From Escherichia coli (GTDB lineage Bacteria > Pseudomonadota > Gammaproteobacteria > Enterobacterales > Enterobacteriaceae), in the NCBI RefSeq assembly GCF_041248615.1, contig NZ_CP158426.1: DNA of 64,000 bases, one strand, 5' to 3'. A program made the translations under genes and the position numbers. Below are positions 56,687 through 59,906 of the stretch, piece after piece. The notes under the pieces are model-generated. The model saw only the letters and a list, made by a program, of their open reading frames with translations, had not been told where the DNA came from and ran no database searches. Numbering within the stretch: position 1 is the stretch's first letter; every line of letters starts with the position of its first letter.

Positions 56687-57463
56687 ATGTCCGAAACAAA
56701 AAACGAACTTGAAGATCTGCTGGAAAAAGCAGCAACCGAACCGGCGCACCGCCCGGCCTTTTTCCGTACTCTACTGGAATCCACCGTCTGGGTGCCGGGT
56801 ACGGCGGCGCAGGGCGAGGCTGTGGTTGAAGATAGCGCGCTTGATTTACAGCACTGGGAAAAAGAAGACGGCACCAGCGTCATTCCTTTTTTTACCTCGT
56901 TAGAAGCACTTCAACAGGCGGTTGAAGACGAACAGGCATTTGTCGTAATGCCCGTTCGCACATTGTTTGAGATGACCCTTGGCGAAACGCTCTTCCTTAA
57001 TGCCAAACTGCCAACCGGTAAAGAATTTATGCCGCGTGAAATCAGTTTGTTGATTGGTGAAGAAGGAAATCCGCTGAGCAGCCAGGAAGTACTGGAGGGC
57101 GGTGAATCGCTGATATTATCGGAAGTCGCAGAGCCGCCAGCACAAATGATTGATTCACTCACCACCTTATTTAAAACTATTAAGCCGGTGAAGCGTGCTT
57201 TTATTTGTTCAATTAAAGAGAACGAAGAGGCACAGCCTAATTTACTTATTGGCATTGAAGCCGATGGTGATATCGAAGAAATTATTCAGGCGGCGGGAAG
57301 TGTAGCGACCGATACATTACCTGGCGATGAACCCATCGATATTTGTCAGGTGAAAAAAGGGGAAAAAGGAATTAGCCACTTTATTACCGAACATATTGTG
57401 CCATTCTATGAACGTCGCTGGGGTGGTTTTTTGCGTGACTTTAAACAGAACCGGATAATCTAA
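56687..57463 (+). CDS. sseB: SseB-family protein (enhanced serine sensitivity protein)
   Basis: MSETKNELEDLLEKAATEPAHRPAFFRTLL..., 258 aa; position between pepB and sseA. Confidence 0.88.
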   Translation: MSETKNELEDLLEKAATEPAHRPAFFRTLLESTVWVPGTAAQGEAVVEDSALDLQHWEKEDGTSVIPFFTSLEALQQAVEDEQAFVVMPVRTLFEMTLGETLFLNAKLPTGKEFMPREISLLIGEEGNPLSSQEVLEGGESLILSEVAEPPAQMIDSLTTLFKTIKPVKRAFICSIKENEEAQPNLLIGIEADGDIEEIIQAAGSVATDTLPGDEPIDICQVKKGEKGISHFITEHIVPFYERRWGGFLRDFKQNRII

Positions 57464-57808
57464 AATATGCCGCCCCAAAGGGCGGCATTCGGGCTTACCT
57501 GCTGTTCTGAAGGTTGTTAACCACCAGTAAATTGTTGCCGGAGAGACTCCGGTTATTATTTACCTCGGTTAACAGCGCACCAGAAACAATAAGTACGATA
57601 CAAAAGCACCGTATCTTCATTGTGCGGTCCATGCGAAGACCGCATCACGACAGCACCACTGGCGATATTGCCGCGATAGCAAGCGCTGTGAAACACCTGC
57701 ATTTACGGCCATGGAACATCCTTTCCTTAAGCCAGCGCCCGTTTGCGAGACGGCGGAAAGGGCCGGTGTCGATAATACGCTAAATAAACAATGATTACTC
57801 TCTTTCGC

Positions 57809-58957
57809 TGTGTAAGTTCACAGAGATATTGCAATTACCTCCGGATAAGTAAGGGGAGATTGCACTATGCAAATGCAGCATCTGATGGTTGGCTATCCTA
57901 AGTACTACCAAACGGCCGATTATGCGTTGAGGCTTTCAGTGATGGCTGATACAGCAACAATGAGAATGAAGGCTCTGCACTTCTGGGATAAACACGGTAT
58001 TTCTGCAGCTTCTGAAGCCTTTGGCGTGTCCTGCCGCACGCTTTACTGGTGGCGTCAGTTACTGAACAAGGGAGGACCTGAGGGGCTAATCCCGCACAGT
58101 AAGGCACCTCTGGTGCGACGAAAAAAGCACTGGCATCCCGATGTGCTGAAAGAGATTCGACGGCTGCGGACAGAGCTGCCGAACCTCGGTAAAGAGCAGA
58201 TTTTTGTTCGCCTGAAGCCCTGGTGCGAACAGCGCTATCTGGCCTGTCCAAGTGTTTCCACCATCGGCAGAATGATCGCTGCCGCACACGATAAAATGCG
58301 AATGATACCTGTGCGTCTGGGCTCGCGGGGGAAGGCACTGCTTGTCAAAAAGCGGTCTGCCAAACCCCGCAGACCAAAGCACTACCGCCCGGTAAAGACA
58401 GGTGAGCTCATTGGGATGGACGCCATTGAGCTCAGAATGGGCGAACTGCGTCGCTATGTCATCACCATGATCGACGAATGCAGCAATTACGCGCTGGCGC
58501 TGGCTGTACCGTCGCTCAACAGTGATATCGTCAATCACTTCTTCAGCCGTGCAGCCCGGCTGTTCCCGGTCGGTATCAGTCAGATAATCACAGATAACGG
58601 AAAAGAGTTCCTGGGAAACTTCAACAAAACGCTGCAGGAAGCCGCTATCAAACACCTCTGGACCTATCCCTACACGCCAAAAATGAACGCTATCTGTGAA
58701 CGTTTTAACCGGACGTTAAGAGAGCAGTTTATTGAATTTAATGAGATTTTACTCTTTGAAGATCTGGCGCTATTTAATCAGAAGCTGGGGGAATATCTGG
58801 TACTGTATAACAGCAAAAGGCCCCATAAGGCGCTCGCACTAATGACGCCCGTGGAATATATTTTAAGAGAGAACAAAAATTGCAATATGTGGTGGACCCA
58901 TACATTCGCTTGACAAAAAGAGAGTTACTGGCGAGTATTGCTTTGCTGTGAAGCACC
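57809..58957 (+). mobile_element. IS481-family insertion sequence (boundaries approximate)
   Basis: Single DDE-transposase ORF flanked by gapped imperfect inverted repeats sharing TTCACAG and GCAAT blocks (left about 57811-57842, right about 58929-58955); outer ends and target duplication are not resolved. Confidence 0.45.
57867..58913 (+). CDS. IS481-family DDE transposase (HTH plus integrase-core/rve domain)
   Basis: 348-aa ORF; N-terminal HTH (FGVSCRTLYWWRQ); catalytic residues in GMDAIEL, ITDNGKEF and ICERFNRTL; C-terminal YNSKRPHKAL motif typical of IS481/IS3 rve domains. True start may be an internal Met. Confidence 0.8.
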   Translation: MQMQHLMVGYPKYYQTADYALRLSVMADTATMRMKALHFWDKHGISAASEAFGVSCRTLYWWRQLLNKGGPEGLIPHSKAPLVRRKKHWHPDVLKEIRRLRTELPNLGKEQIFVRLKPWCEQRYLACPSVSTIGRMIAAAHDKMRMIPVRLGSRGKALLVKKRSAKPRRPKHYRPVKTGELIGMDAIELRMGELRRYVITMIDECSNYALALAVPSLNSDIVNHFFSRAARLFPVGISQIITDNGKEFLGNFNKTLQEAAIKHLWTYPYTPKMNAICERFNRTLREQFIEFNEILLFEDLALFNQKLGEYLVLYNSKRPHKALALMTPVEYILRENKNCNMWWTHTFA

Positions 58958-59016
58958 TGCGTTGCTCCGACAACACAAGTCAACCTGCTGGAAAGGCCGC
59001 GAACCAGACCAGCAAT

Positions 59017-59047
59017 AAAAAACCGCCAAATTCGGCGGTTTTTTATT
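59017..59047. terminator. bidirectional rho-independent terminator at the 3' end of sseA
   Basis: aaaaaaccgccaaattcggcggttttttatt: perfect stem with U-runs on both strands. Confidence 0.7.
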
Positions 59048-59060
59048 GCCTGTAAAAAGC

Positions 59061-59906
59061 TTATTTCAATGGCTCAACCGGTAAATCTGCCCGTGCGCCC
59101 CATTCACTCCATGCGCCGTCGTACAGTTTCACGTTTGGCACATCCAGCGTCGCGAGTGCCAACAAAACCACGGCTGCCGTTACACCAGAACCGCAACTGA
59201 CGATAATAGGTTTGTCATAACTTACGCCGCGACCAAAAAATATCGCATCCAGTTCATCGGTCGTTTTTAGTTCGCCTTCACGTACCAGTTCTGTCCACGG
59301 AACGTTAAACGCGCCGGGAATATGTCCGCGACGTAAACCTGGGCGAGGTTCATCAACTTCTGCGTTAAAACGTGCAGCCGGGCGGGCATCAATAATTTGC
59401 GCCGTATTTTCATGGCTTGCCAATAACACATCGGTGACTTTCACCACGGCTTCAGGATTAAACGTGGCGTTAAACTCTCCTTCCGGCAGCTCTACTGCAC
59501 CTTCTTCTAACAGCAGATCATCGCGCTGCCAGCCTGCAAGTCCACCCCCCAGAATCGACACTTTCTCTACACCAAAGGTGCGCAGCATCCACCATGCTCG
59601 TGGGGCTGAGAAAAGATTACCTTCGTCATAGACAATCAGGTGCTTATCCTGGTTAACGCCTAATTCACGCATCGCCACGGCGAACGTTTCCGGGCGCGGC
59701 AGCATGTGCGGAAGCGGGGAAGTGTGATCAGAAAGCGCTTCGATATCAAAAAACACTGCGCCGGGAATATGTCCATTCAGATACTCCTGAGCAACGTTAC
59801 GATCTTCCTGTCCAGGCGACGCCATGCGGGCATCAATAATCTGAATTTCCGGGTCATCAATATGTTCGGCGAGCCAGTCGGCTCCTACAAACCATGTCGT
59901 GGACAT
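59061..59906 (-). CDS. sseA: 3-mercaptopyruvate sulfurtransferase (tandem rhodanese domains)
   Basis: MSTTWFVGADWLAEHIDDPEIQIIDARMASP..., 281 aa; active-site Cys in SCGSGVTA; track ORF is extended by 53 codons. Confidence 0.93.
   Translation of the reverse strand: MSTTWFVGADWLAEHIDDPEIQIIDARMASPGQEDRNVAQEYLNGHIPGAVFFDIEALSDHTSPLPHMLPRPETFAVAMRELGVNQDKHLIVYDEGNLFSAPRAWWMLRTFGVEKVSILGGGLAGWQRDDLLLEEGAVELPEGEFNATFNPEAVVKVTDVLLASHENTAQIIDARPAARFNAEVDEPRPGLRRGHIPGAFNVPWTELVREGELKTTDELDAIFFGRGVSYDKPIIVSCGSGVTAAVVLLALATLDVPNVKLYDGAWSEWGARADLPVEPLK

Follow-up and report, generated by a model that had tools for sequence, protein, structure and literature searches.

Insertion of an ISKpn28-like IS481-family element at the upstream edge of the timR promoter in Escherichia coli, and a likely preference of its relatives for promoter -35 edges

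The insertion sequences (IS) closest to the element described here belong to the IS481 family, in which IS481 and IS1002 of Bordetella, about 1 kb long and bordered by TGT-tipped repeats, encode an IS3-related DDE transposase in a single open reading frame (ORF). The target of Bordetella IS481 is short and biased in sequence, NCTAGN, and its insertion produces a 6-bp duplication. The TGT tip is a trait of the IS481 family, and among the IS1202 elements, whose transposases are reported to be distantly related to those of IS481 and IS3, the ISAba32 subgroup abuts XerCD sites in an orientation-specific manner (bioRxiv 10.1101/2022.12.17.520857). IS481/IS1002-type elements are reported to affect neighbouring genes by outward transcription (PMC11774165). 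The present study concerns a 64,000-nucleotide stretch of Escherichia coli DNA (contig NZ_CP158426.1; hereafter the window), in which an IS481-type element resembling ISKpn28 of Klebsiella pneumoniae lies between sseB and sseA, inside the type I toxin-antitoxin locus formed by timP (ryfA) and timR.

IS insertions in or near hok loci have long been known, and IS186 adjoins hokC in K-12. The hok/sok loci have been reported as hot spots of mobile-element insertion in K. pneumoniae as well as in E. coli, no mechanism being given (bioRxiv 10.1101/527788). For the locus considered here, work in Salmonella has established that TimP is a small inner-membrane toxin repressed by pairing of the divergent antisense small RNA (sRNA) TimR with the 5' untranslated region (5'UTR) of timP, and that the timP ORF starts at nucleotide +145 of its mRNA (PMC7667032). 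IS481-family elements, ISKpn28, RyfA/TimP and TimR have all been described already; the element is an ordinary IS481-type IS, annotated in RefSeq and situated in a known locus, and an IS next to ryfA, taken alone, is an ordinary finding. What is added here is the statistically strong rule by which this group of elements inserts at the edge of promoters and the recurrent use of the timR promoter as a target, both of which are, to our knowledge, apparently undescribed; a literature search, with ISfinder and TnPedia outside its range, returned no account, for this IS group, of insertion aimed at -35 boxes or of a stop codon taken from the target.

In the window, the right end of the IS lies exactly 5 bp upstream of the -35 hexamer TTGACA of timR, so that the junction reads TTCGC/TTGACA-17-GAGTAT (the slash separates the target duplication from the hexamer), with the timR 5' end at +35. 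This arrangement fits a rule observed for this IS, for ISKpn28 and among more distant relatives, in which the right IS end is followed by the 5-bp duplication, then by TTG(A/C)xx and, after 16-18 bp, by a -10-like hexamer, the transposase gene being co-oriented with the promoter and with the gene or sRNA downstream of it, here timR. The features concerned are the following, in window coordinates.

57809..58904, + strand: insertion sequence of 1,096 bp, IS481-type, ISKpn28-like, delimited by an empty site and by five other copies with both of the same ends
57804..57808, no strand: left copy of the target-site duplication TTCGC, from the empty site in strain FP4 and the junctions
58905..58909, no strand: right copy of the target-site duplication TTCGC, from the same evidence
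57809..57836, + strand: left inverted repeat TGTGTAAGTTCACAGAGATATTGCAATT, from matching to the reverse-complemented right end
58878..58904, + strand: right inverted repeat AATTGCAATATGTGGTGGACCCATACA, which also encodes the C-terminus ...CNMWWTHT, from the sequence, end alignment and protein comparison
57867..58913, + strand: transposase ORF of 348 aa with helix-turn-helix (HTH) and DDE domains, from ORF calling, Pfam, NCBIfam and residue mapping
58910..58938, + strand: timR promoter, with -35 TTGACA at 58910-58915, a 17-bp spacer and -10 GAGTAT at 58933-58938, from the K-12 timR 5' end and a position weight matrix (PWM)
58945..59044, + strand: timR (antitoxin sRNA TimR/RyfB), intact, from a 100-nt full-length alignment to K-12 timR b4811 with 5 mismatches per 100 nt

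The FP4 empty site, which reads ...CTCTTTCGC/TTGACA... and, with more of its right side, ...CTCTTTCGC/TTGACAAAAAG..., sets the ends of the element and, with the junctions, gives the TTCGC duplication. The inverted repeats are imperfect (TGT...ACA, with 19 of 26 positions matching) and have the inner motif ATATTGCAAT in common, and the tips of the element read TGTGTAAG... on the left and ...CATACA on the right. Its transposase carries the Pfam domains rve, rve_3, HTH_32 and HTH_28 together with the catalytic residues D185, D243 and E278 in a D-58-D-35-E spacing, and is matched best by the NCBIfam model NF033577, transpos_IS481 (219 bits, E=9e-65, positions 2-283 of 284), the next-best family, IS3, reaching 97 bits only. 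A sequence-only reading of this DNA had placed an IS481-family transposase between sseB and sseA, and this was borne out: the 348-aa ORF with its HTH and rve domains lies there, and the best hidden Markov model family, the TGT-type repeats, the 5-bp duplication, the empty site and 75.5% nucleotide identity to ISKpn28 all agree with the family. The bounds which that reading gave as approximate (about 57780-58970) do contain the element, but had to be narrowed to 57809-58904.

Traits of an IS481-type element that it shows are a single ORF with no programmed frameshift, TGT repeats, a length of about 1 kb, a short duplication, empty sites and multiple locations. Mobility is apparent from the empty site, found in FP4 and most of 5,426 complete E. 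coli genomes, and from more than 50 distinct insertion sites; 1,064 of the 5,426 genomes carry relatives at a coverage of at least 80%, chromosomal or plasmid-borne, in up to 38 places per genome, one copy only being present within the window. The element is an intact, probably active IS481-family insertion sequence, and it belongs to an ISKpn28-like species left unnamed by RefSeq. Inspection of the window and the copies by eye found nothing convincing as an internal transposase promoter or as a junction promoter of the copy-out-paste-in kind, in which the right end provides the -35 and the left end the -10.

The transposase ORF contains no stop codon within the element. Beyond the IS end it continues for two codons before stopping, as ACA/TTC GCT TGA (here the slash marks the IS end), so that its last 9 nt are outside the IS and its stop codon, the TGA at 58911-58913, falls within the -35 hexamer of timR, T-TGA-CA. 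The ORF reads out into the flank in every copy examined, and this lack of an internal stop explains why database 'transposases' of this group range from 348 to 573 aa among close homologues, some of which carry domains or fragments of neighbouring genes; the long fusions are read-through, not biology. Naming is similarly inconsistent, because the scores of near-identical copies fall on either side of the curated 224-bit cut-off of transpos_IS481: copies about 2% different pass it and are named 'IS481 family transposase' by the NCBI annotation pipeline PGAP, and the generic RefSeq name 'integrase core domain-containing protein' arises from a score 5 bits under it. PGAP also labels some intact copies as pseudogenes with a 'missing C-terminus' (for example at locus L004).

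The insertion rule was quantified on right flanks collected by a metagenome scan with the 26-nt right end, whose 120 loci, together with the E. coli copies, gave 41 non-redundant sites; the same pattern applied to one genome per species yielded one match only, which was not used for site statistics. TTG occupies positions +6 to +8 in 20 of the 41 sites (binomial p=1.5e-25), and at most 5 sites have it at any other offset. Ten of the 20 TTG sites have TAnnnT at a spacer of 16-18 bp, compared with 1.6±1.2 in shuffled flanks, and a count of 10 was reached in 0 of 2,000 shuffles. A sigma-70 PWM anchored at +6 scores at least 6 bits in 17/41 sites, as against 0-3 sites at each of 29 other offsets, and, given TTG, a -10 score of at least 2 bits is found in 14/20 sites versus 4.2% of 2,008 TTG sites of the window (p=1.5e-15). 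At timR the PWM gives 8.8 bits, its maximum, at that offset, and the 5' end annotated for timR in K-12 maps to 58945, which is 35 nt after the first T of TTGACA. The possibility that TTG belongs to the IS itself was ruled out, as the FP4 empty site keeps TTGACA and the flanks differ completely between sites. A role as targeting signal for the palindrome that lies at the insertion point in the window (described below) was not supported either, other sites having no equivalent palindrome there.

Several of the targets can be named. At K-12 sokC the corresponding sequence is TCTCC/TTGACC, with the annotated sokC 5' end at +35 and with TCTCC forming the complement of the hok ribosome-binding site, and the IS occupies this sok-promoter position at locus L006, at hokD and at a plasmid hok. 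From the sequence, an IS inserted at hok/sok comes to lie between the leader of hok and the hok ribosome-binding site, and the toxin should be silenced as a result. Upstream of manA and sthA the IS end lies 72-73 nt before the ATG, and a further target is the sRNA STnc100. The Rfam 'sok' model (RF01794, 157 nt) produced matches at L053 8016-8159 (+) and L128 42-209 (-), whose strand is contrary to the direction of the Sok promoter as deduced from K-12 sokC; what the model describes may be a longer region or the strand of the hok leader, and these matches were not relied on, the K-12 sokC annotation being used instead.

Homologues down to 42% identity retain a conserved C-terminal ...C(N/Q)xWW(T/P)xT encoded by the right repeat and followed by a variable tail. 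Because of the TTG rule, the third codon after the tip is predicted to be TGN, and tails were therefore sorted by what they imply about the target, using 171 proteins, with about 5% expected to fit by chance.

Enterobacterial tails, 79 distinct: two residues then stop (TTGA) 17; XXC (TTGC/TTGT) 19; XXW (TTGG) 0; other 39; cut by a contig end 4
Tails of distant relatives, 53 distinct: two residues then stop (TTGA) 27; XXC (TTGC/TTGT) 13; XXW (TTGG) 0; other 13; cut by a contig end 0

With contig-end cuts left out, 36/75 enterobacterial and 40/53 distant tails fit the rule. For eight distant homologues (42-45% identical, from Acidithiobacillus and uncultured bacteria) the DNA was checked, and a promoter-like target was present in all eight, with the -35-like hexamers TTGAAC, TTGACG, TTGACG, TTGACA, TTGCCA, TGGACT, TAGGCT and GTGCAA at +6 and correctly spaced -10-like hexamers, three of them a perfect TATAAT and one site reading TTGACA-16-TATAAT. 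The target duplication is seen on both sides in six of the eight, and the downstream gene, where called, is co-oriented, as at trxA-rho and xseB. Such sequence evidence indicates that the -35 insertion rule is old and subgroup-wide, extending beyond Enterobacteria into other Proteobacteria.

Taken together, we regard the insertion of an intact IS481-family element at timP/timR by targeting of the promoter (-35) edge as the likely explanation of the locus, and hold it with good confidence, although several observations weigh against it. About half of the distinct enterobacterial sites are off the rule. Sites without TTG mostly have no target duplication or adjoin other mobile DNA, and several off-rule sites are regarded as rearranged because the duplication is absent; others are insertions into genes such as mgrB, as in the ISKpn28 insertion at mgrB +91 reported under colistin selection (PMC6101004). 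Some sok sites are paralogous, so that the sites are not fully independent, and natural insertions have already been filtered by selection, so that part of the -10 signal could reflect survivorship. Promoter activity is known or annotated for few targets only (timR, sokC). A simple promoter scanner, which requires at least 4/6 matches per hexamer, found no promoter in 57400-59120, the timR -10 GAGTAT matching at 3/6 positions, and the timR promoter was accordingly placed by the K-12-annotated 5' end and the PWM rather than by the built-in scan. Finally, the transpos_IS481 score of the window protein lies those 5 bits under the curated cut-off. The targeting of -35 boxes is thus a strong preference, not an absolute rule.

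As to mechanism, the element would select sigma-70 promoters as targets and integrate at about -36/-41, a position that would spare both the core promoter and the genes and so offer a nearly harmless 'safe harbour', while the target promoter would supply the missing transposase stop codon. Recognition might proceed through promoter-bound RNA polymerase/sigma-70 or the DNA distortion that it causes, which we favour, or the transposase might itself read a -35-like motif in the DNA, non-promoter insertions then being removed by selection. The polymerase-related route is favoured because a -10 hexamer occurs at a distance that varies between sites, the position of the -35 being constant, and because the fourth base follows the -35 consensus (A, then C/T, never G) and not the inner repeat motif of the element, TTGGCA in the distant group. 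In its fullest form, which we put forward tentatively on the basis of sequence comparison, a widespread IS481 subgroup ranging from enterobacteria to Acidithiobacillus would consist of dedicated promoter hunters, sensing sigma-70 promoters via -35-bound RNA polymerase/sigma or its distortion of DNA, inserting in one orientation at -36/-41 and taking their stop codon from TTGACA.

We rate this polymerase-assisted version at a level similar to that of a rival, itself possible but doubtful, in which the transposase would read only the short motif NNNNN/TTG(A/C), for example via its HTH binding the inner TTGCAA/TTGGCA-type repeat motif, with the promoter context produced by selective loss and no role for RNA polymerase. 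In favour of this rival, each inverted repeat holds, about 20-25 bp in from its tip, the motif ATATTGCAAT, which the distant group has as TTTGGCAC; the targets of the enterobacterial IS are as often TTGC (9/20) as TTGA (8/20), with more C than in typical -35 boxes, and all data come from natural insertions that have passed selection. Motif reading does not account as readily for the -10 score given TTG, which is far above that of random TTG sites (the 14/20 versus 4.2% noted above), or for the way in which the -10 tracks spacers of 16-18 bp while the -35 remains fixed. In the distant group, moreover, the inner motif is TTGGCA, yet none of the 53 tails indicates TTGG, the fourth base being A in 27 and C or T in 13. 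Gene-disrupting insertions do survive in databases, mostly without TTG; a class with TTG and no promoter should therefore be visible, and is rare.

The timR promoter has been used as a target repeatedly. A filled sseB-sseA site is present in 13 of the 5,426 complete E. coli genomes (0.24%), in all 13 at the same base, in the same orientation and with a 1,047-nt ORF, and these genomes carry six sseB protein alleles, six sseA protein alleles and at least four flank backgrounds. The IS is identical (0/1,096 differences) at loci L009-L012 and L015 and differs at 1-2 positions in L016-L018, while the flanks among these differ at 26-39/808 left-hand and 13-29/596 right-hand positions. The duplication of L015 reads TTTGC at either end of the IS, which is the sequence of its own K-12-like allele, and the window copy is a second IS variant, 2.3% different, at the same site. 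At least two independent insertions at one and the same base pair, and probably four or more, follow from the identical IS in diverged flanks, the own-allele TTTGC duplication and the two IS variants. The site is a hot spot, entered repeatedly and in one orientation, and does not reflect a single event.

A single old insertion, inherited or spread by homologous recombination of the flanks, would dispense with a hot spot. It would suit the small number of filled genomes and the groups with identical flanks (the window and L007; L009, L010, L013 and L014; L011 and L012; L016-L018), and gene conversion between intragenomic IS copies could homogenise the IS sequences. We nevertheless consider it very improbable, given an IS without a single difference in 1,096 positions within flanks 3-4% different on both sides, a TTTGC duplication in L015 that is that genome's own allele, two IS variants 2.3% apart at one site and a -35 rule that independently predicts this site. 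Recurrence could also stem from host selection instead of target choice, if altered or separated timP-timR promoters, or a transposase-driven timR, were advantageous. Deletions of ryfA and timR do alter the stress resistance and virulence of pathogenic E. coli (PMC13188913, PMC8205139), and insertion hot spots at hok/sok have been read as adaptive disruption (bioRxiv 10.1101/527788). Selection, however, does not explain single-base precision and a fixed orientation, the same geometry recurs at unrelated promoters in distant bacteria (manA, sthA, trxA, xseB), and a site filled in 0.24% of genomes shows no sign of a sweep; we therefore judge this account unlikely. Recurrent targeting of the promoter edge remains our preferred reading for the 13 filled sites.

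The surroundings of the insertion in the window, where the gap from sseB to sseA measures 1,597 bp, comprise the following features.

56687..57463, + strand: sseB coding sequence, left neighbour, from ORF calling and from annotation as sseB in the 100% identical RefSeq record NZ_OW967178.1
59061..59906, - strand: sseA coding sequence, right neighbour, from ORF calling and the NZ_OW967178.1 annotation
57462..57766, - strand: ryfA RNA (timP mRNA, the transcript of the type I toxin), from Rfam RF00126 (score 320.5 bits, gathering score 80, E=1e-89, full-length model 1-296)
57467-57488, - strand: terminator-like hairpin of ryfA/timP, from a terminator scan
57495..57620, - strand: timP ORF of 41 aa, MKIRCFCIVLIVSGALLTEVNNNRSLSGNNLLVVNNLQNSR, intact, from the RefSeq timP annotation in identical records and translation
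57772..57777, - strand: probable -10 of the timP/ryfA promoter, TATTAT, from the sequence relative to the Rfam 5' end
57797..57805, no strand: left arm of the palindrome, ACTCTCTTT, a 9-bp perfect inverted repeat, from the reconstructed empty site
58917-58925, no strand: right arm of the palindrome, AAAGAGAGT, from the reconstructed empty site

The sequence-only reading had also supposed that ryfA maps between sseB and sseA and had asked whether the insertion lay in or beside a small-toxin/sRNA locus. Both points proved right: the Rfam search for RyfA placed it there (57766..57462), as in K-12, the hairpins noted at 57537-57551 and 57623-57644 are real, being consensus stems of the RyfA RNA, and the insertion is, more precisely, inside the locus, between the divergent timP and timR, with neither disrupted. 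The short non-coding spacer that it ascribed to K-12 was a mistake, since sseB and sseA of K-12 lie 817 bp apart, with ryfA/timP, timR and a segment of 322 bp, duplicated in part, between them. The RF00126 match, the intact 41-codon ORF and sseB and sseA as neighbours, as in K-12, identify a RyfA locus, in which the timP ORF starts at nt 147 of the mRNA. TimR has the features of its type, namely divergent orientation, an intrinsic terminator at about 59019-59044 (stem plus U-run) and complementarity of its 5' 19 nt to nt ~64-83 of the timP mRNA, found by sequence comparison and in keeping with the account of Salmonella TimR (PMC7667032).

The Rfam scan matched no family to TimR itself. A sub-threshold match to AgrB (58966-59047, + strand, 32.7 bits against 40) overlaps the 3' half and terminator of timR; AgrB is the antitoxin sRNA of the dinQ type I system. 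At 58968-58971, just 3' of the toxin-pairing 5' segment, timR has a 4-nt block that reads GCTCCGACAAC in the window and GCTCATGTAAC or GCTCATGCAAC in K-12/FP4. K-12-type alleles (L019, that is K-12 NC_000913.3 2653340-2654156, and L016-L018) have the extra 322 bp between ryfA and timR, where, besides a second promoter/palindrome module (AACTCTCTTTTGCTTGACAAAAAGAGAGTT), there are part of a ryfA 5' end and a degenerate timR-like sequence that has a terminator of its own; the window allele is of the short, single-module type, and in L016-L018 the IS used the module adjoining timR.

On its other side, the end of the IS lies at the upstream edge of a poor -35 and is followed, 42 bp downstream, by the 5' end of the ryfA RNA, so that the element separates two back-to-back promoters by 1.1 kb and leaves both core promoters intact, together with the ORF of the toxin and the RNA of the antitoxin. 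It also splits the 9-bp inverted repeat, which is present twice in K-12. The arms of this repeat flank the timR -35 box, and relative to the timP promoter, which has a poor -35, the repeat is located around -45; by its position it may be a regulator site common to both divergent promoters. The insertion would deprive PtimR of the sequence upstream of -36 and PtimP of that upstream of -42, including the split palindrome, and transposase transcripts with their ribosomes would be expected to run into PtimR and on to the timR terminator.

Copies elsewhere show how varied the history of the element has been. With a 1,901-bp query that includes flanks, 37, 13 and 12 matching places were found in NZ_CM130730.1 (strain IAL7255), NZ_CP027103.1 and NZ_CP148363.1, respectively, and by these counts the element has expanded recently in some E. 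coli lineages. Many virulence plasmids, namely plasmid p2 of strain EC28 (L005) and similar ColV-type plasmids (H41-H53), have between iss and iroB a fixed, degenerate copy of about 92% identity; this copy contains frameshifts, its first base is changed, no target duplication borders it, and its right flank, CAGCAAACGC..., is off the TTG rule. Matches of the L055 type (H55-H57) retain only the first 670 bp in some chromosomes, where the remnant is annotated as an HTH protein adjoining or fused with an H-NS family gene, the protein P0056 carrying PF00816.

If confirmed, insertion at promoter edges would be a new mode of target choice for bacterial DDE transposons, with the target set by function and not by a single sequence, and would give a mechanistic account of the clustering of mobile elements at hok/sok and now at timPR. 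Promoter hunting, if true, would explain why antitoxin-sRNA promoters (sok, timR) are recurrent hot spots, and would represent a bacterial counterpart of Ty3/Tf1-type promoter targeting. Confirmation would also provide a system in which to study how transposases sense transcription complexes, possibly a tool to place DNA beside promoters, and an explanation of the annotation problems of this group, with its variable lengths, fusions of up to 573 aa, false 'missing C-terminus' calls and inconsistent names. The 13 natural strains with separated promoters are material for the role of the divergent promoters and the split palindrome in TimR/TimP control.

Compared with the described elements, the one in the window is closest to ISKpn28, which has the same length of 1,096 bp, the same ends (TGTGTAAGTTCACA... 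and ...TGGTGGACCCATACA), a 5-bp duplication (TCTCC in L006), a single HTH-DDE ORF running out of the right end and the same insertion geometry at sok promoters. It differs from ISKpn28 in nucleotide sequence, the 75.5% identity holding over the whole 1,096 bp, with about 80% identity at the protein level, values that we take to denote a different IS species by the usual ISfinder criterion. Like IS481 and IS1002 of Bordetella, it combines a single-ORF, IS3-related DDE transposase with a length of about 1 kb and TGT-tipped repeats; in contrast to them, it duplicates 5 bp, its target is the upstream edge of a -35 box used in one orientation and not a palindrome, and its stop codon comes from the target. 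The locus corresponds to canonical timPR, with a toxin mRNA that has a long structured 5'UTR and a divergent antisense sRNA that pairs with it (PMC7667032). Both timPR genes are left intact by the IS, whereas at hok/sok it separates hok from its leader. The eukaryotic retrotransposons Ty3 (at RNA polymerase III start sites), Ty1 and Tf1 use the transcription machinery to integrate at promoters, upstream of transcription start sites by a fixed distance, and spare coding sequence. Their likeness to the present element is a functional analogy only, the hosts and machinery being unrelated and contact of the IS with RNA polymerase or sigma being hypothetical. Among bacterial elements, ISAba32 of the IS1202 group, Tn7 at attTn7, and IS1397/ISKpn1 and ISPpu9 in repetitive extragenic palindromic (REP) sequences likewise abut a recurring functional site in a fixed orientation and spare genes; the element described here differs from these in that its target is a degenerate functional class, the sigma-70 promoters, and in that it encodes no accessory targeting protein or guide RNA.

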